Of a DNA stretch of 64,000 bases, positions 10,973-61,980 are shown piece after piece. The DNA comes from Eledone cirrhosa (lineage: Eukaryota). Location: positions 43,462,001 through 43,526,000 of the forward strand of contig OZ024744.1 in NCBI GenBank assembly GCA_964016885.1. Reading direction: 5' to 3'. A model generated the notes under the pieces. The model was not told the origin of the DNA, made no database searches, and worked only from the letters and a program-made list of their open reading frames with translations. Numbering within the stretch: position 1 is the stretch's first letter; the number at the start of each line of letters is the position of its first letter. The translations under genes were made by a program, and so were the position numbers.

Positions 10973-11029
<57 letters not shown>

Positions 11030-11289: not shown

Positions 11290-11333
<44 letters not shown>

Positions 11334-16471: not shown

Positions 16472-19400
16472 TTAAAAAAAAACAACAAAAAGAAAACCCC
16501 GTGACCAAAAAATACCGGGATGGCGGCCGGCGGGGAATAACCGTGTCTCTAGGGGAGAACGACCCCTCTAGTCTTGGTTGACACTCGTTCTAGAAGTCGT
16601 AACACGAAATGATTACCTCTTGGCGGATAAGGATAAAACGCGAAAAAATAAAGTAAATGTCTAATGATAAAATCTCATACCGGATCGGCCGTCACCCGGG
16701 TAAAAAAGGGCCGCGTCGCTCAGAGAGGAACCAGACTGGGGTCGAAAAATCAGCTAATGGTTCAAACCCTCCCATCACTTCGGAGCTGGAGACCTCCCAT
16801 AACCGGAATACTCCTACTGTTGGCCCTCCATGCTCACCACCAAGAAATCCAAAGAAAAAGAGAGAAAAATGGTCAAGGGAAGATAATAAAGAAGTATTGA
16901 GGCTTTCTACACTGCCATGTACTTACCCATCAAATACATCGAATACAGAACAGACATATATCAACTGGAAAAAGAAACATCCCGAAAACAGAGGCTATAT
17001 TGACAGTAACAAACTAGCCAATATACGAAGAAATATTGTAAGAAAAAGGTTACTAACTGATATAGAAATTGATCAGATCAAGCTATTAGCACAAAGTCAG
17101 CGAAGGGAAAATGAAACATGTGTCAGTGAAAACGAGGTAAACTGTAACACTTCGAATCCCAGGGTTGGGGCGGAATCACTGGCATCAGAACAAATTAAAG
17201 AAAGGATCGAAAAAGTGGAGGGAGTGCATGCTCAGGATGAAACTCCAAATGAAAATAATGAGATCGTAAATGATAAAGAAATGAATGAGAACGAACTTGC
17301 CAACTTGAAGGATGAAATTATGATCGAATGGATGAAAATGAAAGAATCTGACATGGGGCAACGAGACACCCTCCCTAAGATCCAGAACTCCAAACAGAAC
17401 CAAAAGATAATACACAAGACTAACATAATTCTCAAAAACATTATCATCACAAACAAACTAAACATTACTGATTTAAATCATCTCTATTATGCATCGGCTA
17501 AAGTTACCACTCACTTATGTGGAGTGAAGATGAAAAAACAAAGGAATTCCCACAAGAAATCTACTTGGCAAGAGAACATCAATCGCCAAATAAACCTTCT
17601 TCGATCTGACATAGAAATTTTAACAAACTATAAAGTAGGTGAACATGTTAAACAAACTAAACTTAGAAAATTGAAAAAAAAGTACAGTATAAAATCAACA
17701 TGTGACATAGACATGCTGATAGAAATAATCAAGCAAAAAGTGTCGGCCAAAGCTGCTCGTATAAGGCGCTTTGAAAAACGATCTAGATTCTATAAGGACA
17801 ATAATATGTTCAAAAACAACCAAAGAAACTTCTACAGAAAAATTGGTAAGTCACCAATAACTGCTAAATCAATACCACCCAAGGAGGAAGTGCAAGAATT
17901 CTGGGAAAAGATCCGGGCCAAAGAAAAAGTTCATAACATACATGCCCCATGGATAGACAGACAAATGAAAGATACAGCTCACCTTGAGGAACAAACATGG
18001 GAAAATATAACAGTTGAACAGTTGCGCTTGGCTCTAAGAAAAACCAGCAAGTGGAAATCCCCAGGAAAAGACAAAATACAAAACTTTTGGATAAATGCCT
18101 TCACAGAGTCTCATGAGCTGTTAGCCCAACTTTACAATGAAATAGTTAAGGAGCCAGAAAAGATACCTTCATGGCTAGTTAACGGCATTACATTCCTGCT
18201 TCCGAAGAATGATGAGACAAACAATTCCAAACATTACAGACCGATAACTTGCTTGACCACAATGTATAAAATTTTAACATCAGTCCTAACTGAATACACA
18301 TATGACCACCTGATAACAAATGACCTATTTCCCATTGAGCAGAAAGGGTGTAAACGAGGCTCATATGGCTGTAAGGATCAGCTTCTGGTTAACAAAATGA
18401 TACTGGAAGATTGTCATAATAGACACAAAAATCTATCGATTGCTTGGATAGATTATAAAAAAGCATTTGATAGTTTGCCACACAGTTGGATTGAAAAATG
18501 TTTAGAGATTTTCAAAGTATCCCCCGTTGTCAGGAGGTTTTTGTCATTCAGTATGAAGACATGGAAAACGACACTCCTTTTGAATAGTGAAACAAAATCA
18601 CTGGAAGCTGGAGAAGTTAATATTAATTGTGGAATTTTTCAGGGTGACTCTTTATCACCGCTTTTATTCTGCATCGCACTTATACCATTAAGTAAAATGC
18701 TCAATGAAACAAAACATGGATATAAAGTCTATGACAAAACCATTAATCACCTGTTCTACATGGATGACCTGAAACTATTTGCAAAAAATGATGAACAATT
18801 GCAAGGGCTTATAGCGAGAATACTGGGTTGTATGAATGTAACAAGGAATACATTGTTTGTGTGTATAATATTTAATTAACAATGGTAGATAGTATTTTTG
18901 ACATGTCAAAGGAATAGATGTTAGAATGAAGCAAAGTTAGTAGTTACCGTTTTGATTGCCAGGCAAACGCGGCTGGCAGAGGACGCCTGGCTAAGGCCAG
19001 GCGCCTGTTGGCCAAATGAATGGCAGAGCCAAATGTGAGGCTCTTGACCTGGTGCCGAAAAGGCAATGAGAGAAAGAGAGCTTAAAGTTGTTAGTTTTAT
19101 AGGGCTCTGACCGGAAGTTACAGAAAGGGCCCCACTTCCCGTCCAGACGTTAATCCAAACAAGGGAGACAACCGCTACAGGCTATTATCCACTGTGAAGC
19201 AGTTCAGTGATGATATTAAAATGGAGTTTGGACTAGATAAATGCGCCAAAGCAACGTTCACCAGAGGAAAGCTGCTGAAGTGTTAAGACATTAATCTTGA
19301 TCGGGGGAACGTGATAAGAGAACTTGATCAAGAAAAAACTTACAAATATCTAGGTGTTTGCGAAGGAGACGGAATCAAGCACTCGACAATGAGGGAAAGG

Positions 19401-20792
19401 ATAAGGAAGGAATGTTACCGCAGAGTAAGAGCAATCTTAAGAACGGAATTGAATGCAAGGAATAGGATCGATGCCATAAACACGCTTGCCATACCAGTAG
19501 TAACCTACAGTTACAATGTCATCAACTGGTCAAGCACAGAGATCCGTAGGCTCGATACAAAAATTCGAAAGTTCTTAACCATGCACAGAATGCATCACCC
19601 TAAAGCAGATATAGATAGAATATATCTCCCTAGGAAAGAAGGAGGACGTGGGTTAATCCAGTTAGACATTGCGTTGAAAACTGCAACAATTGGATTATCT
19701 ACATATCTAAGGGAAACACGAAAGCATCAAAAGATCATATTCCATTACAAAAGATGCACAAAGATACAGTAATGGACTACAAATTTCAGAAGTCCCATTT
19801 ACTGCTGAAATGGAAAACACAGAAAAAGCAAAGCAGGTAAAAGTAACTGCAAAGAAAGAACTGCTACAGAAACTGGCTAAGAAATGGCAAGAAAAGCCTC
19901 TGTATGGAAAATACCCAGAGCGAGCTAACAATCCTGATGTTGACAAAACTTTAACCCATCAGTGGTTGGCATCCTCTGGACTGAAATCGGAGACTGAAGG
20001 ACTGATTATATCGGCACAAGATCAGTGTCTGCCAACAAAAAATTACCAAGCCAACAAAATAAAAAATGGGTGCAGCCCATTATGCCGTGTATGCAAAAAA
20101 CAACCAGAGACCATTGACCATATAATTTCAATGTGCAGGCCTATAGCTCCAACCGAATACCTAAACAGGCATGACAGAGCTGCACAATACATACATTGGA
20201 TAATGTGTAAGCATTTTGACCTGCCCCATCAAAAGAATTGGTGGGAGCATCAACCACCTCCCATACTTGAAAAAGATCACATCTCAATCTTGTGGAACTT
20301 TAGCATCCAAACAGACCGAAAAATAGATGCAAACAGACCTGATATAATATTGAAATACTTTCAAAAGAGGGTATGCCTGCTAATTGATATGTCTGTTCCA
20401 ATAGACAAGAATGTATCTATAAAAACATTTGAAAAATTGAGCAAGTATAAGGACCTGGAGATAGAAATTGGAAAAATGTGGAAATTGAGAACTAAAACAA
20501 TACCAGTGGTTGTAGGCGCTCTGGGGATGATACCTAAGGGGTCTAATGATTACATATCGCAAATCCCAGGAAACCCGCGTATAGGAGAAATACAAAAGAT
20601 AGTACTAATGGGAACTGCCCATATACTAAGGAAGATTCTGTCAATATAAGTACATCACAAGTCTAAACACTAAAGATGCATGTGTGAATATGTATGTTCT
20701 TTCTTGAACATGGCGGACCTTGTTGTCTCTTGAGGTCACTGGTTGTGACTTGGTGATAACTCGTATGAACATAAAGCAAGATAAATGCAACA

Positions 20793-20794
<2 letters not shown>
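16472..20794 (+). mobile_element. Near full-length R4/Dong-type non-LTR retrotransposon, family A copy 1 (interrupted, defective)
   Basis: ORF pieces 16657-18809, ~19184-19772 and 19810-20649: YRPITCL, WIDYKKAFDS, GIFQGDSLSP, YMDDLKL, CRVCKKQPETIDHIISMC, RHD, RPDII...IDMSVP..K..KY; ends in (AAT)n; 5' boundary approximate. Confidence 0.92.
18810..19179 (-). mobile_element. 370-bp solo LTR inserted in the Dong-A RT domain
   Basis: 4-bp TSD GGCT (18806-09 / 19180-83); empty site caagggctatt at ~35393-35403; termini TGTAGCG...CGCTATA on minus; TATAAAA at 19095-101 and ATTAAA near 18871 on minus. Confidence 0.85.

Positions 20795-20845
<51 letters not shown>
20795..20845. repeat. (AAT)n junction between Dong-A 3' end and Tx1 3' end
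   Basis: Pure AAT run. Confidence 0.95.
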
Positions 20846-20846
<1 letters not shown>

Positions 20847-23800
20847 TTTTCTTTATTAACCACAAGGGTTTACATAAAGTAGACATTAAGGACAGTACAG
20901 GACAATACAGGACGGTACAAATGGGCATTTCTGCGTGTAAAAAAAACAGAGGATGTAATAAAATAACAAAGAAAGATCCCCAATAGGGGGGAACTTCCGA
21001 GGGACATTTGTGGAGAAAGCCCATTAAAAGACCACAGTGGCCCTGACCACCAGGGCAAGTGCCCTCTCCCAGTTTTCCACCTTTAATTTACAGACACATA
21101 CTCAGAGTAGGCCCATTCACTCGGGCCCATACTTGCCTCTCTCACCCATCTTTCAACAAAATGCTGGGAAGAGAGCACTTCCCTCTCTACCCTGATTTTC
21201 CTTTTCAAATGAAATTTGAAAAAGTTAATCAGGGTATCACCGAAGAGGTAAGTGCTCGTCTTCAGCCCTTTCAAACGTGTCCACCATACTATCTCTTTCG
21301 CCATGGCCACCAGACAGATAAAAACTGCCTGCCCTTCCCGGCTGAAAGAAGAGGGTGGGGAAATCCTCACGATGGACTCAGCTAATAGCTGGATCCGTCC
21401 TACACGTGACAGCAGGTGTTCGACATAAACCCACAAGTCAGCAATGCTCGGACACTGGACGAGTGCGTGCAGGACGGTTTCGTCGCCCTGCGCGCATCTC
21501 GGACATGCCCGACTGACGGCACCTCTATGCCTGTAGAGTTTATCCCGAACTGGCAAAGCTCCCCGGTAGCACTGCCAGGTCAGGGATTTCTGGAAGTTGT
21601 CCATAGGCCCCGGCCCGAAAGTTCTTCCGAAGAGATTGGCTAGTTGATTTTCGTCGACGCCTAGAGTTTCTCCAAGTACGTCGTCGCTCTTCCCCTCCAC
21701 TAATCCTCTATAGAACGCCAAGGGGTAGTTTCCACCGATCACATTGCCCGATTGGTCGAGGGCTGTGAGCGCCTGAAAACATTCCAGTCTACAAGCGCTC
21801 CCTCTCGGTCTTCGCTTGACCCAGGACTGCAGCTCCGTCAAGGAGACGAGCTGGGGAAAGACGTCTCTAGCTAACGGCGACCACACCTGATCACCGTCAA
21901 GGAAGAGGTGGTGATGTCGTAGCCTGAGCGCGTGTCTGCGCATCATCAGCCACGGCATGCCCAGCCCTCCATGTAGCGGGTGTTGACAGCAGATGGACCG
22001 CCTGACCATCGGAGCGCGTCCCTTCCACAAAAAGCGAAAGAGCAAACGCTCCAGCGCAGTCAGACGGGGCTTAGGACAAGGTACGACGGTCAGGCGGTAG
22101 TAGATGACGGACGCGATGTACGCGTTAGCCACCTCCGCTCGACCTTTCAGGGATAGCTTCCTCTCCGCCCATTTTTGAGTGAGAGAAGCCACCCTGCTCG
22201 TCATCTCGTCCCAGTTTTTGTCCGTCTGGAGGTCCGGACCGAACCAGACCCCTAGCAATTTAACCGGTCTGTCCATCCAGCGTCCGACGACGCTGTTGGA
22301 CGGCATGGACCTGCCTCTCCAGGTGCCGAGCTGCAGGCCCACTGACTTTTCCTGGTTGATCATTGCTCCTGTCACCGCTTCGTATTCTCTTAGTGTAGTG
22401 CCGATCGCCTCGATGTGTTTGGCGTTCGACACCACTACGGTGACATCGTCCGCATATGCTGACACGGATCTTCCGCATCCTAGTTCGCGCGGGACGTACC
22501 TCAACGTCTCCAGTTTGTGCAGTAATGGCTCGAGAGTCAATACGTACAAGAGGGACGAGAGGGGACATCCTTGGCGGACCGAGCGCATGATGTTGAACGG
22601 TTCCGAAAGGTGACCGTTCACTCTCACCACAGAGCAGATGTCGCTGTGGATGGCAGCGATCCAGCCTCTGAAGACGGGCCCAAAGCTAGCTGCCCTCAGG
22701 ACTGCCGCTAGGTAACGATGGTCGACCCTATCGAAAGCTTTCGACTGATCTAAATTTATCAAGGATCCACCCTTGCCAGGTTCCCAAGCTACCCTCTCTA
22801 CGATGTATCGCATGAGGTGGAGGTTGTCGTGGATGGATCTGTCGGGAATGGCGCATGTATGCGCCTCTCCCACCAGACCACCAACGACAAGCGCTAACCT
22901 CTTTGCTAGCACCTTGGCCAAAATCTTGAACTCTGTGTTTAGCAGAGTTATGGGCCTAAAATTATCTATGTTATCCCCCTTGTTCGGATCCTTTCTCAGC
23001 AGTGCCACCGCACCTCGGCTTATAGAGCTGGGAATTCTCCCGTTCTGTTGCAAGTTGCAGTAGACGTCCGCGAAGAGGCCTCCGAACAAGTCTGGCATCT
23101 GTACGTAAAGTTCATAGGGCAGACCATCCAAACCAGGCGATTTACCCCTTGTGCAGCCAGTCATTGGCTCCCTTACTTCAGCGGCTGTTATCGGCTTTTC
23201 GCAACACTCCGCTTCAGGGGCCGAGAGCCGCGGCAGTCCGTCGAGGTAGACACTAAAGTCCATCCCTCGACCCGGCCCACCGCTTCCCCCGAAAAGCTGA
23301 GCGAAGTGTCGCTGAAAGGCTTCAGACATTTGCCCGAGATCGAGTAACATGCGCCCGTCGTGGTCCACCAAAGACCGGATCGTGGCTTTGTTGCCACGAC
23401 GCGCCTCCGCCACTCGGGCCCATTGAACGGCTTTCTTCCCCTCGTGTATGAGAGCACGCACCCTAGCTCTGACAACGCAGCCTTCGTGCTTTGCATTGAA
23501 GAATTGGTCAAGGGCCAATTTCGCCACAAGCACGTCGGTCACGATGCCTTTGCTAAGAGCCTCGTATAATTTTCTAACTAGTTCTCCCTCTGCTCTATTT
23601 TTCTCTATTGCTAAAGCCTTACTAAACCTAATGGACTCTATTCTAATGGCTCTTTTCAGAGCAAACCACCACTTGTTGACGATGGCCCCCGTCAACGCCC
23701 GCTTAACTAGTTCGCTAATCCGGTCTCTGTAGGCCTTGCGTGCTGGTAAGGACGCGTTTAGCTTCCACTAGCCGGGTCCTCGTCTATGAAGCCTATCTAA

Positions 23801-26773
23801 GTCAAGCACACAGATCACGAATTTGTGGTCCGTGTAGCTGACTATCTTGAATTGTGGACAGCCTATGCTAGACCAATCTATTTCCCTACAAAATACTCTA
23901 TCTAGATATGATCTGGATGACCCTATGCGATTTGTCCAAGTCCACATTGGCACATTCGGGAAATCCAATCGGTACCTGCCAGACAGTTCAAAACGCCTAA
24001 GCATGTTGGTGAGGCTTTTGCACCCTCCCCCCCCTAGCCGCTAATCTTATACAGTCCCAGCGTGCATCTAAGATCCCGTTCCAGTCGCCCACTAACACTA
24101 AAGAGCGGGACGTTCCAAGAAAGGTCTCCAGACGCCGGAAGAAATCAGGCCGCCCTGCTCCTGTCGGGGCATGACGGCCACTAGCCTGAAAGCTTGCCCG
24201 TCTCCGCTGGTCACCTCCAGCACCACCAACTTACCCTCTGGGTCCAGGAAGATGGCCCGTATGGCAAGATCCAAACCTCTCCGAAAAAGCACAGCAACTC
24301 CTCCCCCCGATCCAGGACGGCTGGGAGATGCGTACACATCTTAGCCGCCGAAGATCGGTGTGAAGGCCCGTGCTTCGGAGATTCTGGTCTCGCTTATGGC
24401 CACTACATCTATGTTTAGTGACCTGAGGTCGTTGAGCAGGTGACCATGCTTCCATGACGACCCCAAGCACGCGCATTTATGTTGCCTATTCTGAGGGAGG
24501 TCATATTTAAAATAGAGTGGAAAAGATGGGAAAGACCACTTACCGTACTTTTCGTAGAGAAAGGATGGTTTTTCCATCCCTTTTCACTTGATCGTCTGGT
24601 GAAGGGACCGTTGAATCGTCCCTTCGGCTGGTCCTCGGCTCTTCTATGAGTATGTCCGAATATACTCTCCGGTTGAGAGTCCCTCCTAGGTCTCTGAAAT
24701 CACCAACTGCGTTGGGGAATTTCGTTTTAATGTTTGTGTATTGTTTCTGTGCTATTTTTAGCAGTCTTATGTTAGTTGGCGTTTTGATCGGTGCTGGTAT
24801 TATGTAGTCCTGTTGTGAAATGTCTGTGTGTTCAATTATGTAAGTCATTAGTTTCTTGTTGTGTATTTATTGCCGTGCATTTGTTTTTCTGGGGGTGGGG
24901 TGTAGTTCTGCTATTTTCTTGTCGTTGTTGCTGGGTGTGTGTGTTTTGTTGTTGTGTTTGCGATGTTGGTGCTTGTGGTGGTGGTGTTGAAGGTGTTGTT
25001 GGCGGTGGGGTTGTCGCCGGTGGTGATGGTGGTGCTAGTGTGGGTGGTGATGGTGTTGGTGGTGTTGCTGCTGTGGGTCTCTTTGCAGTAGACTTTACCC
25101 TTTTCTCATTTCTTTCCTCCCTTTTCGAAGGCGATGATGCGCTGCTTCTGCGTTTGTGCCTTCTTACGACCTTTTGCCATCCCTCTCCCACCTCACACTC
25201 CATGTCTGATTCTGTGAGGTCGGGGCGGGGTACCAGCTCCACTCTTTCACTTGTTGTTGTTGGTGATGTTTGCACTGGAGTCTCTGTTGCAGCTGCATTT
25301 GGTATTACTGTTGTTCTTGTTAATACTTCCACTGCTGCTGCTGCTGTTTTTGATTTCCGTGGCGTGGGTATGGGTGCCACGGACCTATCGTTCCTGGTTT
25401 CCGCTTGTCCTCTTGCTGATAGCCGTGGAGCCGGTTTCGGAAGGGGGAGGATTTTCTGCTTTCTCAGGGTCTTCTCTTTGCAGAAGGCCCTGAGGAGGTG
25501 AGTCTTCGATCCACAGCGAAAGCATTTCGGGCGTTTGCCCTCAACACTTATGGGCAGTTGAGTGCCGTTATCGAAGTCTATCACATCCGGGATAGCTTCG
25601 ATGCACTCCTGGTTGGTTTGGATTAACATCTCAATGGAAGTGCCGACTCAATCTTCTCGGAGGGGACGTGGGTCACTTTGACCCTCACAATTTTTTGCCC
25701 GCAGTAGGAGGGTACCAACACCATTTTCTCGTTCCTTAGGGTCACTAAGGATTGAGCCTTTGCCTCCTGGGGTGTGGCAAAAAGCACGTCTACGGTGGCA
25801 TATTTCTTGCCTCGGGTGATGTGCGTTTTCCGCTGCCACAGACCCTAAGGCTTTTTGTATTTGAGCCTCTGTGGCTCTTTCAACCCTACGGGATTTTGTG
25901 CTTACTGTACGGTACGTGACGGTACAGTGCTGTTGGGTTTCTAAAAAATGTTCAGCTGCCTTGCAGATTGCTCGGTGTCCGGTTTTTGTCACCATCTTCT
26001 TCGCTTCCTGTAATTCCTCATTTGTTATGAGGATGGTTTCCAGGTTCTTTGCGATAACTGCAAACGAGATTGGTTTTTCTTTGCTGCTGTTGTTGTTCTT
26101 GTTGTTGTCGTCAGAGCTGCTGTTAGTTTTGTTGTTGCTGCAGGTACTACGACTACTGCCGCTGTGGTTGTTGTTGCTGTTGCTGCTGCTGCTGCTGCTG
26201 CTGCTGTTGTTGTTGCTGCTAATGCTGTTGTTGTTTATGCTGCTGCTGATGCTGTTGCGGCTGCTACTGTTGTTTTCCTTGTCACTGTTGCTGCTGCTTC
26301 TGTTATTACAGCTGCTACTGCTATTATTCCTGACGTCAGACGAATGAAATGGGTTTTCGTATTTCCCGCACACCTTTTGCGTCGTTGTCGTCGTCGTCGT
26401 GGAGAAATCTTGCACGCTTTGCACGTGATTTTTCTTTTCTGGTGTCGCTTGCGAAAGAGAATGGAGGGAGAGAGACACATTTAGAGAAGGGAGGGAGAGA
26501 GACAATCTTCTCTCTGCTGTAGTGACGATTGAGGAAGAAGACAGAATGAGTGGGAGTGACCTATGAAAATTCTTTTTCGTAGCCATGTTTTTTTTTTGTT
26601 TAAAATAAATATTGGGCACAAAACCCCAATAAGCGGTTATTTAACTCCGAAGGGCCAAATAACGGGCAGAAAGACCCCTCTCACGAGGAGGAGGGTGTGT
26701 TTGTCTACAATTTGGTTAAAGTTTTAGACAATTTACAATTGTTATAGCGGTTAAAATTTACAATACCTTACAG

Positions 26774-29700: not shown

Positions 29701-29898
29701 CCACGAATTGGAGTGGAGAACCTATGTACACTACAATAGTACTTGTTCATTTATACATTGCACCTTTGGCATTTTCTTTGCACCTTTTTCAGAAAACCCA
29801 AATTATTAATGGTAATGTAAATATTTATTTTTTTAAGGAACCCGGAGTTTGTTTTACGGAACCCCAAGGTTCCGCGGAACCCATGTTGGCGACCACTG
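26774..29898 (-). mobile_element. hAT (Buster-type) DNA transposon, 3125 bp
   Basis: Perfect 14-bp TIR CAGTGGTCGCCAAC; 8-bp TSD CCTTACAG (26766-73 / 29899-906) with central TA; single site in the sister Tx1 copies (~48355, ~54644). Confidence 0.97.
26894..28794 (-). pseudogene. hAT transposase (BED zinc finger + DDE), frameshifted
   Basis: CFLCSKVLSN..LKRHIDTNH, LQVDETTDI, SITTDGAAAMTG, HCMIYRE (usual CxxH altered), VRWLS, C-terminal dimerisation remnants; split over ORFs 27895-28794, 27629-27940 and 27018-27371. Confidence 0.92.
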
Positions 29899-29934
29899 CC
29901 TTACAGAGCCGAGCCTCCGTCAACCATAGCATTC

Positions 29935-29991
<57 letters not shown>
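29935..29991. repeat. (AAT)n junction between Tx1 5' end and Dong-B 5' end
   Basis: Pure AAT run. Confidence 0.95.
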
Positions 29992-29993
<2 letters not shown>

Positions 29994-33590: not shown

Positions 33591-33626
33591 AATAACAATA
33601 ACAATAATAATAATAATAATAATAAC

Positions 33627-37032: not shown

Positions 37033-37050
37033 AATAATAATAATAATAAT

Positions 37051-42301: not shown

Positions 42302-42367
<66 letters not shown>
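42302..42367. repeat. (AAT)n junction
   Basis: Pure AAT run. Confidence 0.95.
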
Positions 42368-42369
<2 letters not shown>

Positions 42370-48390: not shown

Positions 48391-48441
48391 AATAATAATA
48401 ATAATAATGATTTCTTTATTGGCCACAATTAATAATAATAA

Positions 48442-48627
48442 TTGTTTCTACTTTAGGCACAAGGCCAGCAATTACCTAGTGCATTACTGGTACTTTATTT
48501 TATCGACCCCATAAGGATGAAAGGCAAAGTTAACCTCGGCGGGATTTGAACTCAGATCGTAAAGGGACGTAACTATGCTGGAAAGGATGGCGTCCGACCC
48601 TCTACCGATACTGCCAATCCACCGCCC
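48442..48627 (-). mobile_element. tRNA-derived SINE
   Basis: 5' GGGCGGTGGATTGGCAGTATCGG, B-box GAGTTCAAATCC, tail ggccttgtgcctaaagtagaaacaattatt; flanked by (AAT)n. Confidence 0.9.
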
Positions 48628-48912
48628 TAATAATAATAATAATAATAATGATTTCTTTATTAACCACAAGGGTTTACATAAAGTAGACATTAAGGACAGT
48701 GCAGGACAATGCAGGACGGTACAAATGGGCATTTCTGCGTGTAAAAAAAACAAAAACAGAGGATGTAACAAAAATAACAATGAAAATAACAATGAAAAAT
48801 TCCCCAATAGGGGGGAGACTTCGGAGGGACATTTGTGGAGAAAGCCCAGTAAAAAGCCACAATGACCCTGACCACCAAGGCAAGTGCCCTCTCCCAGTTT
48901 TCCACCTTTAGT

Positions 48913-51900: not shown

Positions 51901-52332
51901 CCCGTTCCAGTCGCCCACTAACACTAAAGAGCGGGACGTTCCAAGAAAGGTCTCCAGACGCCGGAAGAAATCAGGCCGCCCTGCTCCTGTCGGGGCATAG
52001 ACGGCCACTAGCCTGAAAGCTTGCCCGTCTCCGCTGGTCACGTCCAGCACCACCAGCTTACCCTCTGGGTCCAGGAAGATGGCCCGTATGGCGAGATCCA
52101 AACCTCTCCGAAAAAGCACAGCAACTCCTCCACCCGATCCAGGACGGTTGGGAGATGCGTACACATCGTAGCCGCCGAAGATCGGTACGAAGGCCCGTGC
52201 TTCGGAGATTCTGGTCTCGCTGATGGCCACTACATCTATGTTTAGTGACCTGAGGTCGTTGAGCAGGTGACCCTGCTTCCATGACGACCCCAAGCCACGC
52301 GCATTTATGCTGCCTATTCTGAGTGAGGTCAT
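48913..52332 (-). CDS. Tx1 ORF2: APE endonuclease + reverse transcriptase (1139 aa)
   Basis: All motifs intact: GSINARGL, SET, GDWN, YLDR, TDH, QGCPLS, YADD, CPRC..H...C. Confidence 0.95.
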   Translation of the reverse strand: MTSLRIGSINARGLGSSWKQGHLLNDLRSLNIDVVAISETRISEARAFVPIFGGYDVYASPNRPGSGGGVAVLFRRGLDLAIRAIFLDPEGKLVVLDVTSGDGQAFRLVAVYAPTGAGRPDFFRRLETFLGTSRSLVLVGDWNGILDARWDCVGLADRGGGCKSLTNLLRRFELSDRYRLDFANVPMWTWTNRIGSSRSYLDRVFCREIDRSSIGCPQFKIVSYTDHKFVICVLDLDRLHRRGPGYWKLNASLPARKAYRDRISELVKRALTGAIVNNKWWFALKRAIRIESIRFSKALAIEKNRAEGELVRKLDEALSKGIATDVLAAKLALDQFFNAKHEGCVVRARVRALRHEGTKAVQWARVAEARRGNKATIRSLVDHDGRMLLDPGQMCEAFQRHFAQLFGGSGGPGRGMDFSVYLDGLPRLSATEAKCCEKPITAAEVREAMTGCTRGKSPGLDGLPYELYVQMPDLFGGLLADVYCNWQQNGRIPSSVSRGAVALLRNDPNKRDNIDNFRPITLLNTEFKILAKVLAKRLALVVGGLVGEAQTCAIPDRSIHDNLHLMRYIVERVAREPGTGGSLINLDQSKAFDRVDHRYLAAVLRAAGFGPVFRGWIAAMHSDICSVVRVNGHLSEPFNIMRSVRQGCPLSSLLYVLTLEPLLHKLETLRGVPRELGCGRSVSAYADDVTVVVSNAKHIEAIGTTLREYEAVTGAMINQEKSVGLRLGTWRGRSMPSNSVVGRWTDGPVKLLGVWFGPDLQTDKNWDEVTSRVASLTQKWAERKLSLKGRAEVANAYIASVICYRLTVVPCPKPRLTVLERLLFRFLWKGRAPLVRRSICCQHPLRGGLGMPWLMMRRHALRLRHLHLFLDGDQVWSPFARRVFPQLVSLTELQSWVKRRPRGSAWRLECLQALTALDQSGNVIGGNSTSAFYRGLVEGKSDDVLGETLGVDENQLANLFGRTFGPGPMDNFQKSLAWQCYRGALPVRDKLYRHGGAVSRACPRCAQGDETVLHALVQCPKIADLWVYVEHLLSRLGRIQLSSESIVRIAPPSSFSREGQAVFICLVAMAKEIVWWTRLKGLKTSTYLFGDALIDFFKFHLKRKIRVEREVLSSQHFVERWVREARMARVNGPTLSIYL

Positions 52333-52367
52333 GTTTAAAATAGAGTGGAAAAGATGGGAAAGACCAC

Positions 52368-54464
52368 TTACCGTACTTTTGGTAGAGGAGGGATGGTTTT
52401 TACATCCCTTTTCACTTGATCGTCTGGTGAAGGGACCGTTGAATCGTCCCTTCGGCTGGTCGTCGGCTCTTCTAAGAGAATGTCTGAGTATACACTTCGA
52501 TTGATGGTTCCTCCTAGGTCCCTGAAATCACCAACTGCGTTGGGGAATTTCGTTTTAATGTTTGTGTATTGTTTCTGTGCTATTTTTAGCAGTCTTATGT
52601 TAGTTGGCGTTTTGATTGGTGCTGGTATTATGTAGTCCTGTTGTGAAATGTCTGTGTGTTCAATTATGTAAGTCATTAGTTTCTTGTTGTGTGTATTTAT
52701 TGCCGTGCATTTGTTTTTCTGGGGGTGGGGTGTGGTTCTGCTATTTTCTTGTCGTTGTTGCTGGGTGTGTGTGTTTTGTTGTTGTGTTTGCGATGTTGGT
52801 GCTTGTGGTGGTGGTGTTGAAGGTGTTGTTGGCGGTGGGGTTGTCGCCGGTGGTGATGGTGGTGCTAGTGTGGGTGGTGATGGTGTTGGTGTTGTTGCTG
52901 CTGTGGGTCTCTTTGCAGTAGACTTTACCCTTTTCTCATTTCTTTCCTCCCTTTTCAAAGGCGACGATGCGCTGCTTCTGCGTTTGTGCCTTCTTACGAC
53001 CTTTTGCCATCTCTCTCCCACCTCACACTCCATGTCTGATTCTGTGAGGTCGGGGAGGGGTACCAACTCCACTCTTTCACTTGTTGTTGTTGGTGATGTT
53101 TGCACTGGAGTCTCTGTTGCAGCTGCATTTGGTATTGCTGTTGTTGTTGTTAGTATTTCCACTGCTGCTGCTGTTTTTGATTTCCGTGGAGTGGGTATGG
53201 GTGCCACGGGCCTATCGTTCCTGGTTGCCGCTTGTCCTGTTGCTGGTAGCCGTGGAGCCGGATTCGGAAGGAGGGGGGTTTTCTCCTTTCTCAGGGTCTT
53301 CTCGTTGCAGAAGGCCCTGAGGTGAGTCTTCGATCCACAGCGAAAGCATTTCGGGCGTTTGCCCTCAACACTTATGGGCAGTTGAGTGCCGTTATCGAAG
53401 TCTATCACATCCGGGATAGCTTCGATGCACTCCTGGTTGGTTTGGATTAGCATCTCAATGGAGGAGCCGACCCAATCTTCTCTTACTTTTTTCTGTACTT
53501 GCAGTACAGTTGTTTTGTCCTCGATTCCGACGAGGACAGACGCGGCCAGCCAAGAAGGGGTCATTCCGGGGGGGACGTGGGTCAGTTTGACCCTCACAAT
53601 TTTTTGCCCACAGTAGGAGGGCACCAACACCATTTCCTCGCTCCTTAGGGTCACTACTGATTGGGCCTTTGCCTCCTGGGGTGTGGCAAAAAGTACGTCT
53701 ACAGTGGCATATTTTTTGCCTCGGGTGATGTGCGTTTTCCGCTGCCACACAGACCCCAAGGCTTTTTGTATTTGGGCCTCTGTGGCTCTTTCCACCCTAC
53801 GGGATTTTGTACTTACTGTACGGTACGTGACCGTACAGTGCTCTTGGGTTTCGAAAAAATGTTTCGCTGCCTTGCAGATTGCTCGGTGTCCGTTCTTTGT
53901 CACCATCTTCTTCGCTTCCTCTAATTCCTCATTTGTTATGAGGATTGTTTCCAAGTTTTTCGCAATACCTGCAAATGAGATTGGTTTTTCTCTGCTGTTG
54001 TTGTTGTCGTCAGAGCTGCTGGTACTTTTGTTGTTGCTGCAGGTACTACGACTACTGCCTCCGCCGCTGTTGCTGTGGTTGTTGTTGGTGTTGCTGCTGC
54101 TAATGCTGTTGTTGTTTATGCTGCTGGTGATGCTGTTGCGGCTGCTACTGTTGTTTTCATTGTCACTGTTGCTGTTGTTATTACGGCTGCTACTGCTATT
54201 ATTCCTGACGTCAGACGAATGAACTGGGTTTTCGTATTTCCCGCACACCTGTTTCGTCGCTGTCGTCGTCGTCGTGGAGAAACCTTGCACGCTTTGCACG
54301 AGACTTTTCTTTTCTTTCGTCACTTGCGAAAGAGAAGGGAGGGAGAGAGACACATTTAAAGAAGGGAGGGAGAGAGACAATCTTCTCTCTGCTGTAGTGA
54401 TGATTGAGGAAGAAGAAGACGGAATGAGTGGGAGTGACGTATGAAATTTCTTTTTCGTAGCCAT
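52368..54464 (-). CDS. Tx1 ORF1 (698 aa): Ser/Asn-rich N-terminus, probable RNA-binding core, CCHC knuckle, Pro/Thr linker, conserved C-terminal domain
   Basis: Open frame ending 35 bp upstream of ORF2; CFRCGSKTHLRAFC; homologous pieces in the other four Tx1 copies. Confidence 0.9.
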   Translation of the reverse strand: MATKKKFHTSLPLIPSSSSSIITTAERRLSLSLPSLNVSLSLPSLSQVTKEKKSLVQSVQGFSTTTTTATKQVCGKYENPVHSSDVRNNSSSSRNNNSNSDNENNSSSRNSITSSINNNSISSSNTNNNHSNSGGGSSRSTCSNNKSTSSSDDNNNSREKPISFAGIAKNLETILITNEELEEAKKMVTKNGHRAICKAAKHFFETQEHCTVTYRTVSTKSRRVERATEAQIQKALGSVWQRKTHITRGKKYATVDVLFATPQEAKAQSVVTLRSEEMVLVPSYCGQKIVRVKLTHVPPGMTPSWLAASVLVGIEDKTTVLQVQKKVREDWVGSSIEMLIQTNQECIEAIPDVIDFDNGTQLPISVEGKRPKCFRCGSKTHLRAFCNEKTLRKEKTPLLPNPAPRLPATGQAATRNDRPVAPIPTPRKSKTAAAVEILTTTTAIPNAAATETPVQTSPTTTSERVELVPLPDLTESDMECEVGERWQKVVRRHKRRSSASSPLKREERNEKRVKSTAKRPTAATTPTPSPPTLAPPSPPATTPPPTTPSTPPPQAPTSQTQQQNTHTQQQRQENSRTTPHPQKNKCTAINTHNKKLMTYIIEHTDISQQDYIIPAPIKTPTNIRLLKIAQKQYTNIKTKFPNAVGDFRDLGGTINRSVYSDILLEEPTTSRRDDSTVPSPDDQVKRDVKTIPPLPKVR

Positions 54465-54730
54465 ATTGTTTTTTTGTTTAAAATGAATATTGGGTACAAA
54501 ACCCCAATAACTGGTTATTTAACCCCGAAGGGCCAAATAACGGACAGAAAGACCCCTCTCACGAGGAGGAGGGTGTCTTTATCAACAATTTGGTTCAAGT
54601 TTTAAACAATTTACAATTGTTTTAACGGTTAAAAATTACTATACCTTACAGAGCCGAGCCTCCGTCAACCATGGCATTCAATAATAATAATAATAATGAT
54701 TTCTTTATTGGCCACAATTAATAATAATAA

Positions 54731-54916
54731 TTGTTTCTACTTTAGGCACAAGGCCAGCAATTACCTAGTGCATTACTGGTACTTTATTTTATCGACCCCA
54801 TAAGGATGAAAGGCAAAGTTAACCTCGGCGGGATTTGAACTCAGATCGTAAAGGGACGTAACTATGCTGGAAAGGATGGCGTCCGACCCTCTACCGATAC
54901 TGCCAATCCACCGCCC
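54731..54916 (-). mobile_element. tRNA-derived SINE, identical to 48442-48627
   Basis: Base-for-base match by eye. Confidence 0.9.
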
Positions 54917-54944
<28 letters not shown>

Positions 54945-54948
<4 letters not shown>

Positions 54949-57900
54949 TCTTTATTGACCACAAGCCTATTAAAAAAGCCACGGTGACCCTGACCACCAG
55001 GGCAAGTGCCCTTCAATTTACAGGCACATACTCAGAGTAGGTCCATTCACTTGGGCCATTCTTGCCTCTCTCACCCATCTTTCAACAAAATGATGGGAAG
55101 AGAGCACTTCCCTCTCTACCCTGATTTTTCCTTTTCAAATAAAATTTGTAAAAGTTAATCAGGGCATCAGCGAAGAGGTAAATGCTCGTCTTCAGCCCTT
55201 TCAGACGCGTCCACCATACTATCTCTTTCGATATGGCCACCAGAGAGATAAAAAAATGCCTGTCCTTCCCGGCTAAAGGAAGAGGGCGACGAAATCCTCA
55301 CGATGGATCTGTTCTACACGCGACATAAAACCACAAGTCAGCAATGCTCGGAAACTGGACGAGTGCGTGCAGGACGGTTTCGTCGCCCTGCGCGCATCTC
55401 GGACATGCCCGATTGACGCCACTTCCATGCCTGTAGAGTTTATCCCGAACTGGTAAAGCTCCTCGGTAGCACTGCCAGGCCAGGGATTTCTGAAAATTGT
55501 CCATAGGCCCCGGCCCGAAAGATCTTCCGAAGAGATTGGCTAGTTGATTTTCGTCGACGCCTAGATTTTCCCCAAGTACGTCATCGCTCTTTCCCTCGAC
55601 TAACCCTCTATAGAACGCCAAGGTTGAGTTTCCAGCGATGGTATTGACCGAGTGGTCGAGTGTTGTAAGAGCCTGAAGACATTCTAGTCAGCAAGCACTT
55701 CCTCTCGGTCTTCGCTTAACCCAGGACTGCAGCTCCGCCAAGGAGACTAGCTGGGGCAACATGTGTTTAACAAACGGCGACCACACCTGATCATCGTCGA
55801 GGAAGAGGTGGAGATGCCGTAGCCTGAGCGCGTCCCTTCCACAAAAACCGAAAGAGCAAACGCTCCAGCGTAGTCAGCCGAGGCTTAGGACAAGGCACGA
55901 CGGTCAGGTGGTAGTAGATGACGGACGCGATGTATGCATTCTCCCCGTCCACTCGACCTTTCAGGGATAGCGTCCTCTCCGCCCATTTCTGGGTGAGAGA
56001 AGCCACCCTGCTCGTCACATCGTCCCAGTTTTTGTCCGTCTGGAGGTCCGGACCGAACCAGACCCCTAGCAATTTAACCGGTCCGTCCGTCCAGCGCCCG
56101 ACGAAGCTGATGGACGGCATGGACCTGCCACTCCAGGTGCCGAGCTGCAGGCCCACAGACTTTTCCTGGTTGATCATTGCTCCTTTCACCGCTTCGTATT
56201 CTCTTAGTGTAGTGCCGATCGCCTCGATGTGTTTGGCGTTCGACACCACAACGGTGACATCCTCCGCATATGCTGATACGGATCTTCCGCATCCTAGTTT
56301 GCGCGGGACCCCCTCAACGTCTCCAATTTGTGCAGTAATGGCTCGAGAGTCAATACGTACAAGGAGGACGAGGGGGGATATCCTTGGCGGACCTAACGCA
56401 TGATGTTGAACGGTTCCGAAAGGTGACCGTTCACTCTCACCACAGAGCAGATGTCGCTGTGCATGGCAGCGATCCAGCCTCTGAAGACGGGCCCAAAGCC
56501 AGCCGCCCTTAGGACTACCGCTAGGTAACGATGGTCGACCCTATCGAAAGCTTTCGACTGATCTAAATTGATCAAGGACCCACCCGTGCCAGGTTCCCTA
56601 GCTACTCTCTCCACGATGTATCGCATGAGGTGGAGGTTGTCGTGGATGGATCTGTCTGGAATGGCGCATGTCTGCGCCTCTCCCACCAGACCACCAATGA
56701 CAAGCGCCAACCTCTTTGCTAGCACCTTGGCCAAAATCTTGAACTCTGTGTTTAGAAGAGTTATGGGCTTGAAGTTATCGATAACACCCCCCTTGTTCGG
56801 GTCTTTTTTCAGCAACGCCACCGCTCCCCGGCTCACAAAACTAGGAATGCCCCCGTTCTGCTGCCAGTTGCAGTAGACGTCTGCTAAGAGGTCACCGAAC
56901 AAGTCTGGCATAAATGCATAAAGCTCGTAGGGCAGACCATCTAAACCTGGCGATTTACCCCTTGTGCAGTTAGCCATCGCTTCCCGTATTTCACCGGCTG
57001 TTATTGGTTTTTCGCAACACTGTGCTGCAGTCGTCGAGAGCGGAGGCAGTCCGTCCGTCGAGGTGTGCGCTGAAGTCCATACGTCGATCCGGCCCGCCGC
57101 TGCTTCCGAACAGTTCACAAAGTGCTGCTGAAAAGCCTCACACATCTCCTCGGGATCGAGCAACACGCGCCCGTTTTGGTCAGACAAAGACCGAATTGTG
57201 GCTTTGTTGCCACGTCGCGCCTCTGCCACCCGGGCCCATTGGACGGCTTTTGTCCCCTCATGGTTCAAAGCACGCGCTCTAGCTCTGACAACGCAGCCTT
57301 CGTGTTTTGCGTTGAAGAATTGGTCGAGTGCCAATCTCGTCGCAAACACGTCGGTTGCGATGCCTGTCCTAAACACCTCTTCTAGCTTTCTGACTAGCTC
57401 TCCCTCTACTCTATTTTCCTCTATACCTAGTCCTTTGCTAAACCTAATCGACTCTACTTTCATTGCCCTTTTCAGGGCGAACCACCACCTGTTGTTGACG
57501 ACCGCTCCTGTCAACGCCCGCTTAACTAATACGCTAATCCGGTCTCTGTAGGCTTGCGCGCCGGGAAAGACGCGTTCAGCTTCCAGTAACCGGGTCCTTG
57601 TCTATGAAGTCTGTCTATGTCGATCTCACAGATCACAAATGTGTGGTCTGTGTAGTGGACTATTTTAAATTGTAGACAACTTATACTAGCCTTATTTAGT
57701 TCTCTGCAGAATACCCTATCGAGATACGATCTGGATGACCCGATACGGTTTGTCCATGTCCACATTGGCACATTCGGGTGATCCAGTCGATACCTGTCAG
57801 ACAGTTCAAAACGTCTGAGCAGGTTGGTGAGGCTCTTGCACCCTCCTCCCCTATCCACTAGCCCCAGACAATCCCAGCTTGCATCCAAGATACCGTTCCA

Positions 57901-60692
57901 GTCGCCAACTAACACTAAAGAGTGGGACGTTCCAAGAAAGGTCTCTAGACGTCTGAAGAAATCTGGCCGTACTGCCCCTGTCTGGGCGTAGACGGCTACT
58001 AGCCTGAAAGCATTGCCTTCGCTGCCGGTCACGTCCAACACCAGCGACTTACCTTCTGGGTCCAGGAAGATGGCCCGTATGGCGAGATCCAAGCCTCTCC
58101 GAAAAAGGACGGCAACCCCTCCCCCCGATCCTGGACGGCTGGGAGATGCGTATACATCGTAGCCGCCGAAGATCGGTGCGAAGATCGGTGCGAAGGCTCG
58201 TGCTTCGGAGATTCTGGTCTCGTTGATGGCGACCAGATCTATGTTTAGTGACCCGAGGTCGTTGAGCAGGTGACCCTGCTTCCAAGATGACACCAGGCCA
58301 CGTGCATTTATACTGCCTATTCTAAGTACGGCCATGTTGGATGAAAAACGGGGCAAGTGAGAAAGGGTCACTTACCTTGATCATGTAGTGAAGGGACAGT
58401 AGAACCGTCCCTTTGGCTGGTCATGGGGGTTTCCAAGAGGACGTCAGTGAATATCCTCTTGGTAACCGACCCTCTGAAGTCTCCAACTGCGTTGGGGAAT
58501 TTTTGTTTTAAAAGTTTGTACTGTTCTATTTTGATATCAATGATGCTTATGTTTGTCGGGAGAGTTCTTGGTGTTGGTGGGGTGTAGTAGTTTTTTTCTG
58601 TGATGTCTGTGTGCTGCTTTATATGTCGTATGAGTTCTTTATTTGCCATGTTTGGCTGTGTACTTTTTGGGGGGAGGGGTGATGTTGTTGCTGTTTTCTT
58701 CTTGTTACTGTTTGGTGTGTGTGTTTTGTTGTGTTTGCATTGTTGGTGTTTTTGGTGATACTGGTGGTGGTGTGGTTGTTGTTGGCGGTGGTGCTTGTGG
58801 TGGTGATGGTGATGGTGATGGTGGTGGTGTTGCTGCAAGTCTCCTTGCAGCCTTTACCTTTCTTTGTGTGCCTTCGCTTTTGGAGGGCGATGCTAAGGTT
58901 TTTTTGTTTTTTTTTTGTTTTTGTGGCAGACCGTTTGCCACTTCACTCCCGTCTCAGACTCCAAGTTGGATTCCGTAGCGTCTGGGAGGGGTATGTGCTC
59001 CACGGCTGTTGGTGGAGGAAGTGGAGCCCTTTCCGGCAATATTGTTGCTGGTGCAGCTACTTCAAATGTAGCCATTGTGTTGCCGCCACTGATGCTGCTG
59101 CTTTAGTTATCCGTGGCCTTGGTACCGGTGCCACGGACGTTGCCCTCCTACTCACCGTGGAAGGGGCTTCTGCGTTAGTTGCCTGCCCTGCTCTTGGTAG
59201 CAGCGGACCAGGTATTGGAAGGAGAGGGGCCTTCTTCTTCGCTGTCTTCTGCAGGCAAAAGGCCCTGAGGTGACCCTTTGATCCACGCTTATAGGGAGAT
59301 GGAGTCCTTCCTTGGGGATAGCGTCGATACACTCCACGTCAGTTTGTATAAGCCTTTGCATGCCTATACCTGACCAGTTCTCTCTCCCTATTTTCTCTAC
59401 TTGCAGCATGGTCGTCCTGTCCTCGATTCCAGCAAGGACAGACGCGGCCAGCCAAGGTATGGGCACGTCGGGTGGGACCTGGGTCACTTTGACCCTCACA
59501 ATTTTTTGCCCGCAGTAGGAGGGCACCAAGACTATCTCCTCACTCTTTAGGGTTTGCAAAGAGTGAGACTTCGCTTCTTGGGAGGTAGCGAAAAGTACGT
59601 CTTCTGTGGCGTACTTTCTGCCTCATGTGATGTGGGATTTGCCGCTTAACAAAAGGGTGACATTGCTCATCTAGAAAACACACTTGGTGTTTTTTAAGCT
59701 CTTTGTTTGCAAACAAACCGAATATTATGATATTATTATAATCTTGTTTCTACTTTTTGGCACACAGTTCTGGATTTGGGCTTCCGTTGTTCTCTCCACA
59801 TGAGGCGATTTCGAGGCAATTGTGAGGTATGACACTGTGCGTCGTTCTTGTTCCTCCAGGAAGTCGGTTGGTGGTTTCAAGGACACTGAAAATTCAGTTC
59901 TGGTTAGCATGTGTCTTGCGACCGCCATCTCCTCCTCTGCGACCAGGACTGTTTCTACGTTGCGAGCCACCTTTGCAAAAGAGATGGTCTCTTTTTCAGT
60001 GGCATCACTGTTGCCACCGCTACAGCTGCTACTGCTCTTGTTGTTGGTACTGTTGCTGTTGCTACTGCTACAAATGGTGTTGTTGGTGCTGTTGCTGTTG
60101 CTGCTACTACAAATGGTGTTGTTGGTGTTGTTGCTGTTATCACTGTTGCAGTTGATTGTGTCTTTGGTGTCACCGCTGTTGTTGTTCTCGGTACAGTTTT
60201 TATTGTTGCTGTTGGTGTTGTCGCTATTTATTTTCTTGTTAATGGTGTGAATATCGTTGTTGCATTTGTCATTTTTTCTGTTGTCTGTATCTTGGTTGTC
60301 CCTGTTACTGTTGTGGTTGGTGTGGTTATTTTTTTCAAAATTAGTGTTCTCAGTGTTGTTGTCATTGCTGTCTTTGTTCACGTTATTTGTGGTGGTGCTT
60401 GTATCAATTTCTGTGTTCGCCGTAACCCTCCTCTCAACTTTTACGTCGTTGTTACACAACAGCAGACATGTCACACGACAGCAGACATCACGGGGGGACG
60501 CGGCTCAACCATGTTTACTTTTCGATAATTTTTAAAAGTAACAAGTTCAAATATTTGGGACAAAAGGCCCAAAAATTAAACTTTCCCCTTCACTTATATC
60601 CCTTACACAACAATAACATTTAACAATAAATGATTTATGACAGGTAAATAAAGAGATTTACGAGAGCGAGCAAACAGACGTCCGAGCAGCCC
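54945..60692 (-). mobile_element. Full-length decayed Tx1-type LINE with a third ORF1/5' end type
   Basis: ORF2 pieces 57526-58336, 56393-57514, 55791-56249 and 55298-55621; ORF1 pieces ~60510-58368; several deletions; (AAT)n at both ends. Confidence 0.88.
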
Positions 60693-60700
60693 AATAATAA

Positions 60701-61444
60701 TTGTTTCTACTTTTGGCACAAGACCAGCAATTACCCAGTGCATTACTGGTACTTTATTTTATCGATCCCGTAAGGATGAAAGGCAAAGTTAACCTCGGCG
60801 GGATTTGAACTCAGAATGGCAAGGGCCGTAACTATATACGTCAAAGCATAGCGTCCGACCCTCTACCGATACTGCCAATCCACCGACAATGCCAATAATA
60901 ATGATTTATACTTTAGGCACAAGGCCAGTAATTTGAAGGGGAGGGGGAAAAGTCGATTAAATCGAACCCAGTGCATTACTGGTGCTTTATTTCATCGACC
61001 CCGGAAGGATGGGAGGCAAAGTTAACCTCGGCGGGATTTGAACTCAGACCGTAAAGGGCCGTAACTCTATGCTGAAAAGCATGGTGTCCGACTCTCTACC
61101 GCTACTGCCAATCCACCGCCCTTTAATAATAATAATGGTTTCTTATATAGGCAAAAGGCCAGCAATTTTTTTGGGGGGGAGGGAAAAGTCGATGAAATTG
61201 ACCCCAATGCGTGACTGGTATTTTATTTTATCGACCCCGTAAGTATGAAAAGCAAAGTTAACCTCGGCGGGATTTGGACTCAGAATGGCAAGGGACGTAA
61301 CTATGCTGCAAACCGTCTAACCCTCTACCGATGAGTTCAAATTCTACCGAGGTTATCTTTGCCTTTCATCCTTACGGGGTCGATAAGATAAAGTACCAGT
61401 AATGTACTGGGTAATTACTGGCCTTGTGCCAAAAGTAGAAACAA
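60701..61444. mobile_element. Cluster of four SINE copies: 60701-60885(-), 60902-61121(-), 61137-61332(-), 61332-61444(+)
   Basis: Each has the ttatcgacccc..ggatgaaaggcaaagttaacctcggcgggatttgaactcag core or its complement; AAT spacers between the minus copies. Confidence 0.88.
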
Positions 61445-61569: not shown

Positions 61570-61907
<338 letters not shown>

Positions 61908-61980
61908 GAGCGGAGCAAGCAATTATCAAACAATCTTTTAAATAAATTAAAAAACGATTTAAATATTCACCTGTTCTATT

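Follow-up and report, generated by a model that had tools for sequence, protein, structure and literature searches.

Introduction

How do retrotransposons that encode unrelated nucleases come to lie end to end, with one microsatellite at almost every joint and each class in an orientation of its own? The question is raised by a stretch of 64,000 nucleotides from Eledone cirrhosa (assembly GCA_964016885.1, contig OZ024744.1, positions 43,462,001 to 43,526,000), hereafter the window, by whose numbering all positions are given; the results rest on the assembled sequence of this one assembly. A chain of elements at 14705–61443 is composed of four Dong-type pieces, which encode a restriction-like endonuclease (RLE), in the sense that reads AAT, and of five Tx1-type elements, which encode an apurinic/apyrimidinic-type endonuclease (APE), and six short interspersed nuclear elements (SINEs) in the sense that reads ATT. 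The open reading frames (ORFs) on the plus strand contain a reverse transcriptase (RT) and no APE, and those on the minus strand contain APE, RT and a zinc knuckle. An earlier note had counted three Dong-type elements plus a fragment, five Tx1-type elements and several SINEs, a census borne out here, and had proposed that two endonucleases converge on opposite strands of a repeat that is regenerated by each insertion. The reading favored here, at a probability of roughly 0.8, is that the window holds one of many Dong/Tx1/SINE chains built on the AAT repeat, in which opposite strands are probably nicked and every new element is left with repeat at either side, a target for the next.

Opposite polarity of the two classes across the genome

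The flanks of each Tx1 family were tabulated with repeat-free 5′ queries from the best 30 loci, including the window's own copy, and were scored for at least three ATT units upstream. Such units precede 30/30 Tx1A 5′ ends (best 30 of 459 candidates), 30/30 Tx1B 5′ ends (best 30 of 1632) and 26/30 Tx1C 5′ ends (best 30 of 1322), against a background of 198 in 56,760 positions (0.35%) in 20 evenly placed 10-kb stretches. This target preference is far above the 20% rule of PMC4494074.

A junction table was made from the collected loci, de-duplicated by context, without L001–L030, which were biased because their query held 10 nt of repeat. ATT adjoins 83/87 full Tx1 5′ ends, with AAT at none, and 90/102 Tx1 3′ ends, with AAT at one; AAT adjoins 26/27 full Dong 5′ ends and 97/106 Dong 3′ ends. 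Truncated Dong copies that keep their 3′ end have AAT at the 5′ side in 45 of 60 cases and ATT in none, and Dong pieces without a 3′ end have AAT in 29 of 62. When only 5′ ends bearing any tract are counted, the tract is ATT at 99/99 Tx1 and AAT at 100/100 Dong ends, the opposite-strand repeat being found at none. Most full-length copies elsewhere thus have neither non-AAT 5′ flanks nor random orientation, and the strand rule first noticed in the window holds genome-wide. These counts support the occupation of the AAT repeat by both classes with opposite polarity throughout the genome.

Beyond the tract, 79 of 97 Tx1 5′ ends adjoin another member in the rule orientation (39 Dong, 30 Tx1 and 10 SINE), the other 18 being two window cases of stub plus SINE, five other simple repeats and 11 unique sequences. 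Similarly, 20 of 31 Dong 5′ tracts run precisely up to another member that is oriented as expected. A leader carried by the element itself cannot account for tracts that end exactly at rule-oriented members. Dong 5′ tracts cluster near 17–19 units, and the microhomology of Dong 5′ truncation points to the tract averages 1.5 nt versus 0.46 nt expected (35 junctions, picked for having a tract).

The repeat at sites before insertion

One Dong B copy sits inside an ORF that has a run of asparagine (Asn) codons together with RT and GIY-YIG-like motifs; from these motifs, and from a by-eye likeness to a window ORF placed by Atlas in RT/GIY-YIG clusters, the host ORF is classed as Penelope-like. In 16 of 20 loci, drawn from 41 matches, the sequence runs unbroken through the poly-Asn (AAT)n tract into the ORF, and in the remaining four the site is filled by Dong in the AAT sense (three, one of them the query) or Tx1 in the ATT sense (one). 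Filled copies account for four of the six loci at least 96.8% identical to the query and none of the 14 at 88–90% (L361–L380, with a variable poly-Asn tract). The three Dong insertions are flanked by 18 + 8, 33 + 25 and 18 + 6 units, the ORF resuming past the second tract, and two close empty copies have 9 and 12 units. The repeat was therefore present at this site before insertion. The Tx1 insertion is flanked by 14 + 11 units and followed by another Tx1, so that a chain has begun there. Together, the 5′ flanks, the truncated Dong copies and these paralogous empty sites support the repeat as the target and not merely the tail of the elements.

A Penelope-like element also lies within the window, left of the chain. 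In the region 5196–11359, an open ORF of 705 codons (6902–9019, minus strand) has RT and GIY-YIG-like features and lies within a near-perfect inverted repeat, whose arms (5792–7512 and 9044–10764) are 100% complementary over 1721 nt and reach the flanking simple repeats. The arrangement may be an inverted-repeat structure of the Penelope type or may stem from faulty assembly. An assembly gap of 200 bases is present at 4437–4636, in a simple-repeat region. No significant Pfam family was found for the Penelope-like ORFs or for Tx1 ORF1.

Structure and identity of the elements

The intact Dong-type ORF is 1130 aa long and matches RVT_1 without a match to Exo_endo_phos, and its best PDB matches are R2 proteins. 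This single ORF comprises RT followed by C-terminal CCHC, RHD and PD..D nuclease motifs (read by eye), an arrangement characteristic of R4-clade elements such as Dong. Insertion in TAA repeats, as expected of a Dong-type element, was also found. Of 1139 homologues, none of the 120 listed has an informative name. Although strongly different in their ORFs, Dong A and Dong B have one 5′ terminus in common, along with several hundred bases of the untranslated region (UTR), for example, at L093 and L121. In most of the Dong A copies sampled, the 5′ UTR contains a SINE 3′ fragment (16359–16424 in the window) as a constant component, which the family has captured.

The Tx1-type elements have the layout of the L1 group, with two ORFs, the second consisting of an N-terminal APE, RT and a C-terminal zinc knuckle (best PDB match human L1 ORF2, E 8e-51). 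Their ORF1 has a zinc knuckle of the form CX2CX4HX4C, and their tails are (ATT)n without poly(A). The Tx1 clade is characterized by a CCHC knuckle in ORF1, the lack of a poly(A) tail and target preference. Only one of nine matches is named, by the automatic label "Transposon TX1" at 31% identity, and the top Atlas clusters are LINE-1 (0.97) and TX1 (0.96). The clade names Dong and Tx1 are thus probable assignments made from architecture, target and automatic labels. The APE-coding regions at 39126–40161 and 45084–46121 are 95–96% identical between Tx1 families whose 5′ UTR and ORF1 do not align, and the families appear to be mosaics that have traded modules.

Growth and remodeling of the chains

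Chains that follow the same rule were found at four loci picked for clustered matches, namely C1:436.50 Mb, C2:264.90 Mb (five Tx1A copies in a row), C2:175.65 Mb and C2:328.9 Mb, and in one of 20 evenly placed 10-kb stretches, so that the search for similar chains suggested in the earlier note succeeded. Among 33 full-length Tx1A copies, the median distance is 1.17%. In the five-copy run, tandem neighbors are 0.42–0.71% apart. Over the whole set, the nearest relative of a tandem copy mostly lies elsewhere, one C1 pair (0.45%) and one C2 copy being the exceptions, and a distance of 1.45% separates the two copies in the window, which belong to different clades of the tree. As adjacent copies do not, for the most part, resemble each other more than they resemble dispersed ones, the chains grow mainly by separate insertions. 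A tandem duplication of the 6.3-kb unit in the window was considered and rejected, as the tree places its two Tx1A copies in separate clades.

Ahead of each of these copies stands a 259-bp block, identical in the two cases and with tracts at its borders (48391–48649 and 54680–54938); it is most simply read as a target duplication that extends between two successive tracts. A survey of the flanks of 48 full-length Tx1 copies found two clear non-repeat duplications (259 and 41 bp) and two more that reflect neighboring copies of the same elements, the others being hidden in the repeat. The 41-bp Tx1 case and a Dong case of approximately 100 bp (L337) resemble the 259-bp duplication.

The window elements are approximately 94% to 100% identical to their nearest collected relatives, a spread that fits growth over a period of time. 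A paralogue of the chain's right end (54719 to at least 62781) is found 1.4 Mb away; similarity stops precisely at a SINE-tail tract, beyond which the two have different additions, and segmental duplication thus also relocates chain pieces. At L341, 5′ transduction of SINEs by Tx1C was considered and rejected, since similarity extends through the unique flank and thus marks a segmental duplication. The chains are also shaped by deletions, by recombination of one family with another, by segmental duplication and by the nesting of DNA elements. The earlier idea that insertion renews the target and the array extends itself is therefore upheld in so far as repeat lies on both sides afterward and insertions are separate, but segmental duplication and deletion have relocated or altered part of the array, and the label of safe harbor, which implies insertions that spare genes and do no harm, is a conjecture.

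Two further repeats end at the AAT or A-rich tails used by Dong or Tx1 (one in the upstream flank of L328 and the downstream flank of L218, the other upstream of L327 and L336). A 465-bp unit at 61899–63348 occurs in tandem and inverted and adjoins inverted Tx1-like fragments at 63348–63612 and 63846–64000.

Target of the SINE and its probable link to Tx1

The SINE sample contains 71 copies, 26 from the evenly placed stretches (200 kb, both flanks scored) and 45 from SINE-query loci. Duplications of at least 10 bp flank 51 of the 71 (about 10–20 bp overall); 49 are not pure repeat, and of these most are 11–20 bp long and 42 begin with ATTAT, which indicates that the ATT end of the SINE is largely target and that the motif is short. 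Upstream of the site, position −3 is mostly A and position −1 mostly C or T. The SINE thus targets bare ATTAT, mostly outside microsatellites. At L261, L221 and L254, SINEs form short tandem runs, with copies of one target duplication between them.

The footprints therefore differ, with the SINE at bare ATTAT and the Tx1 long interspersed nuclear element (LINE) in tracts, both with ATT polarity. Tx1 and the SINE have in common a 3′ hairpin with a CUUGU loop approximately 10–15 nt ahead of the tail, and its paired bases differ between Tx1A, Tx1B and the SINE. A SINE–Tx1 partnership is likely on these features. The head of the SINE has A/B-box-like motifs, which we take to be of the tRNA type, and no Rfam family reached its gathering score for the SINE.

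Composition of the chain in the window

From left to right, self-comparison and a single-copy library gave the order Dong A fragment, Dong A, Tx1A with a nested hAT, Dong B, truncated Dong A and Tx1 chimera, followed by Tx1A, SINE with stub, Tx1A, SINE with stub, Tx1C and four SINEs. The right end agrees with the limit of 61444 in the earlier note, to within one base, but the left end does not lie at 16472. Once the 5′ UTR of 1.0–1.3 kb present in the two Dong families is included, the start of the first long Dong copy moves to 15690, and the chain itself begins with a fragment at 14705.

The Dong pieces and the tracts are on the plus strand. The first is a family A 3′ fragment (14705–15664), 95% identical to 19809–20816 and without an AAT tract on its 5′ side. 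It is followed by (AAT)8 (15665–15688) and a slightly 5′-truncated family A copy (15690–20794), whose long 5′ UTR of approximately 1 kb, common to other copies, adjoins this tract; it possesses RT and the C-terminal CCHC, RHD and PD..D motifs, its ORF is broken, and it is interrupted at 18810–19179 by a 370-bp insert with a 4-bp duplication and solo-long-terminal-repeat-like ends, outside the AAT rule. A tail-to-tail junction, (AAT)17 (20795–20845), leads to an older Tx1A copy (20846–29934, minus strand; approximately 95–97% identical to relatives), whose 5′ UTR is interrupted by a hAT-like DNA transposon (26774–29898, minus strand) with terminal inverted repeats, an 8-bp duplication, a broken transposase frame and a DUF4371 match under the curated cut-off. 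Beyond the head-to-head junction (AAT)19 (29935–29991), there is a very young Dong B copy (29992–33590), 100% identical over 1719 nt to three other loci, which has lost most of its 5′ UTR and whose ORF (30091–33315) stops earlier than the 1130 aa of intact relatives. An imperfect AAC/AAT tail and tract (33591–33623; seven pure AAT units, counted over 33591–33625) precedes a family A copy that is 5′-truncated at the tract (33624–37032).

The remaining long elements, on the minus strand, are of Tx1 type. After (AAT)6 (37033–37050), the copy at 37051–42301 is a deletion chimera, whose 5′ half comes from family B, with an APE domain 96% like that of family A, and whose 3′ half derives from a more distant family; approximately 650 bp were lost where the halves join. 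After (AAT)22 (42302–42367), a full-length Tx1A copy (42368–48390) has an ORF2 frame of 1140 codons and a broken ORF1. The first 259-bp block (minus strand) consists of a tract at 48391 (six units), a 22-bp Tx1 3′ stub (48409–48430), a tract at 48431 (four), a SINE (48443–48628) and a tract at 48629 (seven). The youngest Tx1A copy (48650–54679) has both frames open, ORF1 with 716 codons and a CCHC knuckle and ORF2 with 1204 codons encoding APE, RT and zinc finger. The second block copy (54680–54944, minus strand) has tracts at 54680 (six units) and 54720 (four), a SINE (54732–54917) and (AAT)9 at 54918. A degraded Tx1C copy (54945–60692), which recurs together with its SINEs and unique flank as a segmental paralogue at C28:44.89 Mb, comes next. 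It is followed at 60693–61330 by three minus-strand SINEs (approximately 60702–60885, 60899–61122 and 61133–61330), linked by short AAT tracts (only three units at 60693, four at 61125), and by a 5′-truncated plus-strand SINE (61332–61443) at the chain end.

All ten junctions cited in the earlier note carry an AAT tract. Its claim that elements abut almost only through AAT stands at these junctions but not for the hAT-like element, the 370-bp insert or the 5′ side of 14705. RLE elements read AAT and Tx1 elements ATT as it stated, but the SINE that it took for an exception, 61332–61443, has ATT after it in its own sense; this SINE flips the polarity of the chain and leaves the sense rule intact.

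Proposed mechanism and alternatives

In target-primed reverse transcription, the nicked strand of the target primes reverse transcription of the element. The Tx1 APE would accordingly nick the AAT strand and prime an element that reads ATT, and the Dong RLE would nick the ATT strand and prime one that reads AAT. The genome-wide polarity fits the proposed convergence of RLE and APE on opposite strands, the nicked strands being those that the model predicts, and convergence at the level of the enzymes is likely. The tail and the target duplication would leave tracts on both sides, as observed at the Penelope-like sites, and so provide the target of the next insertion. The SINE would borrow the Tx1 machinery, as suggested by the shared hairpin and ATT polarity, and full-length Tx1 may require a longer tract than the SINE, be it for cutting, for priming or for joining of the 5′ end. 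The 5′ end would be joined inside the tract, and a second cut or joining in the next tract could give very long duplications such as that of 259 bp. Deletion, inter-family recombination, nested DNA elements and segmental duplication would then edit the chains.

A fuller account would be one of mutual niche building, in which RLE and APE lineages have converged on one repeat, AAT is multiplied with every insertion, the 5′ junction is resolved in the tract (duplications of 40 to 260 bp), Penelope-like poly-Asn runs carry seed tracts and the SINE seeds bare ATTAT, giving polarized arrays of tens of kilobases at many loci. For all of these parts jointly, we put the odds at even.

Several observations weigh against the favored reading. 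The samples consist of best-scoring copies, mostly from the four largest contigs and with some segmental duplicates, so that the counts are not fully independent. Tx1 copies with a broken 5′ end follow ATT in only 10 of 41 cases when the 3′ end is present and in 6 of 43 when it is absent; the remaining 5′-broken copies gave no SINE-like duplication, most having no duplication at all, and by eye many of the tract-less ones look like later deletions, inversions or library gaps. The tract is also missing in 15 of the 60 truncated Dong copies, several of which are library gaps. At a second Penelope-like site, 5/5 paralogues lack an AAT tract where the filled copy starts a chain (its far end was not reached), so that either a long prior tract is not always required, with nucleation at a degenerate site, or the junction is a deletion. 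Only 6 of the 49 SINE duplications contain (ATT)3. The hairpin stem is only 3–4 bp and was in part dictated by the search pattern; folding agrees with it for Tx1A, Tx1B and one of the SINEs, the other SINE end adopting a different minimum-energy fold.

A different account, possible though we hold it doubtful, is that both enzymes are loose A/T-rich cutters and that pairing of the RNA tail, (AUU)n or (AAU)n, with the nicked strand mainly sets site and orientation, so that the strand rule would mirror the tail sequence and not a convergence of endonucleases. In both classes the tails do correspond to the target, the motif of the SINE is hardly longer than ATTAT, one chain seems to begin where paralogues have no tract, and RNA–target annealing has been proposed for SART1 (PMC7265360). 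Tail pairing alone, however, leaves unexplained the fixed phase of the SINE duplications and their upstream bias; the APE domain is 96% identical between families A and B despite their non-aligning 5′ halves, and the specificity of SART and TRAS was altered by an endonuclease swap (PMC7265360). It is improbable that insertion is looser and that the chains are survivors of purifying selection, a selective safe harbor where alone long elements are tolerated. The SINE is indeed dispersed at bare ATTAT (26 copies in the 200 kb of evenly placed stretches) and the long elements lie in tracts, yet ATTAT occurs at 0.32% of positions versus 0.025% for five units and the 30/30 youngest Tx1A copies lie in tracts, and the purging of more than 90% of fresh insertions from a 3-Gb repeat-rich genome would be implausible. 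The notion that the repeats are only tails or leaders and that the chains arose by tandem duplication, unequal crossing-over or mis-assembly is largely refuted and very improbable, since, although 42346–48670 and 48628–54965 are 98.2% alike and the right end has a segmental paralogue, the window's Tx1A pair are not mutual nearest relatives, (AAT)n precedes Dong copies truncated at a wide variety of points, the tract is present at paralogous empty sites, and the segmental paralogues part at a SINE-tail tract with different additions.

Comparison with known systems

Dong is known to target TAA repeats in Bombyx, Anopheles and the snail Biomphalaria (PMC3812793). It is listed among APE elements in that paper, and the R4 clade is placed among RLE clades in PMC4640811. 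The Dong-type elements here resemble Dong (R4) in their TAA-repeat target and differ in that two families share a 5′ UTR of 1.0–1.3 kb, one with a captured SINE fragment, and are interleaved with an APE element. In Octopus vulgaris, Dong-R4 elements are abundant and recently active, and L1-Tx1 elements have been recently active as well (PMC13282606). Microsatellite-targeting Tx1 elements include Kibi for (TC)n, Koshi for (TTC)n and crocodilian elements for (TTCC)n or (TTTC)n (PMC4494074). Like these, the present elements are L1-group APE elements with a microsatellite target; here, the target is (ATT)n, the host is an invertebrate, and the target is common to an RLE element.

SART and TRAS insert in opposite directions in the (TTAGG)n telomeres of Bombyx, recognize two to three units and form arrays (PMC7265360; PMC10088271). 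The likeness lies in two families that occupy one repeat in opposite directions and in arrays. Both of those families are R1-clade APE elements at telomeres, whereas here the enzyme folds are unrelated and the arrays interstitial and numerous. The window does not belong to a telomeric array, as it lies at 43.5 Mb of a 136-Mb contig and its repeat is AAT; it only works alike. R1 (APE) and R2 (RLE) share 28S ribosomal DNA (rDNA) as a repeated target, at distinct unique positions. The chains likewise combine APE and RLE on one repeated target, which here is a self-renewing simple repeat, and they mix three element classes. Tandem dimers can arise when insertion recurs at a preferred site that survives in the junction (PMC5932611). 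SINEU was likely moved by the target-specific Tx1-Mar, with weaker target preference in some families (PMC4494074). The present SINE, in comparison, has an A/B-box-like head and shares a short 3′ hairpin with Tx1.

A full-text literature search found no ATT-targeting Tx1 and no mixed Dong/Tx1/SINE chains; Repbase, the tree figure and supplements of PMC4494074 and two older papers were outside its scope, and the supplements may list more Tx1 targets. Target data for these families are absent from the searched parts of PMC9115989, PMC11203168, PMC4758252 and PMC4640811. Each part thus has a precedent, namely Dong on TAA, Tx1 on TC or TTC, and SART/TRAS in opposite directions on telomeres, and the ATT-targeting Tx1 and the mixed chains are apparently new.

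The finding adds (ATT)n as a new target for L1-group elements and, away from telomeres and rDNA, provides a natural case of two unrelated nuclease folds that use one target with opposite polarity. It also suggests a concrete mechanism by which hotspots of transposable elements and abundant AAT microsatellites may arise in such genomes. The differing footprints of LINE and SINE, together with intact young copies of both LINEs, make it testable how far target choice by non-LTR elements is due to the endonuclease, to 3′ RNA–DNA pairing or to 5′-end joining.

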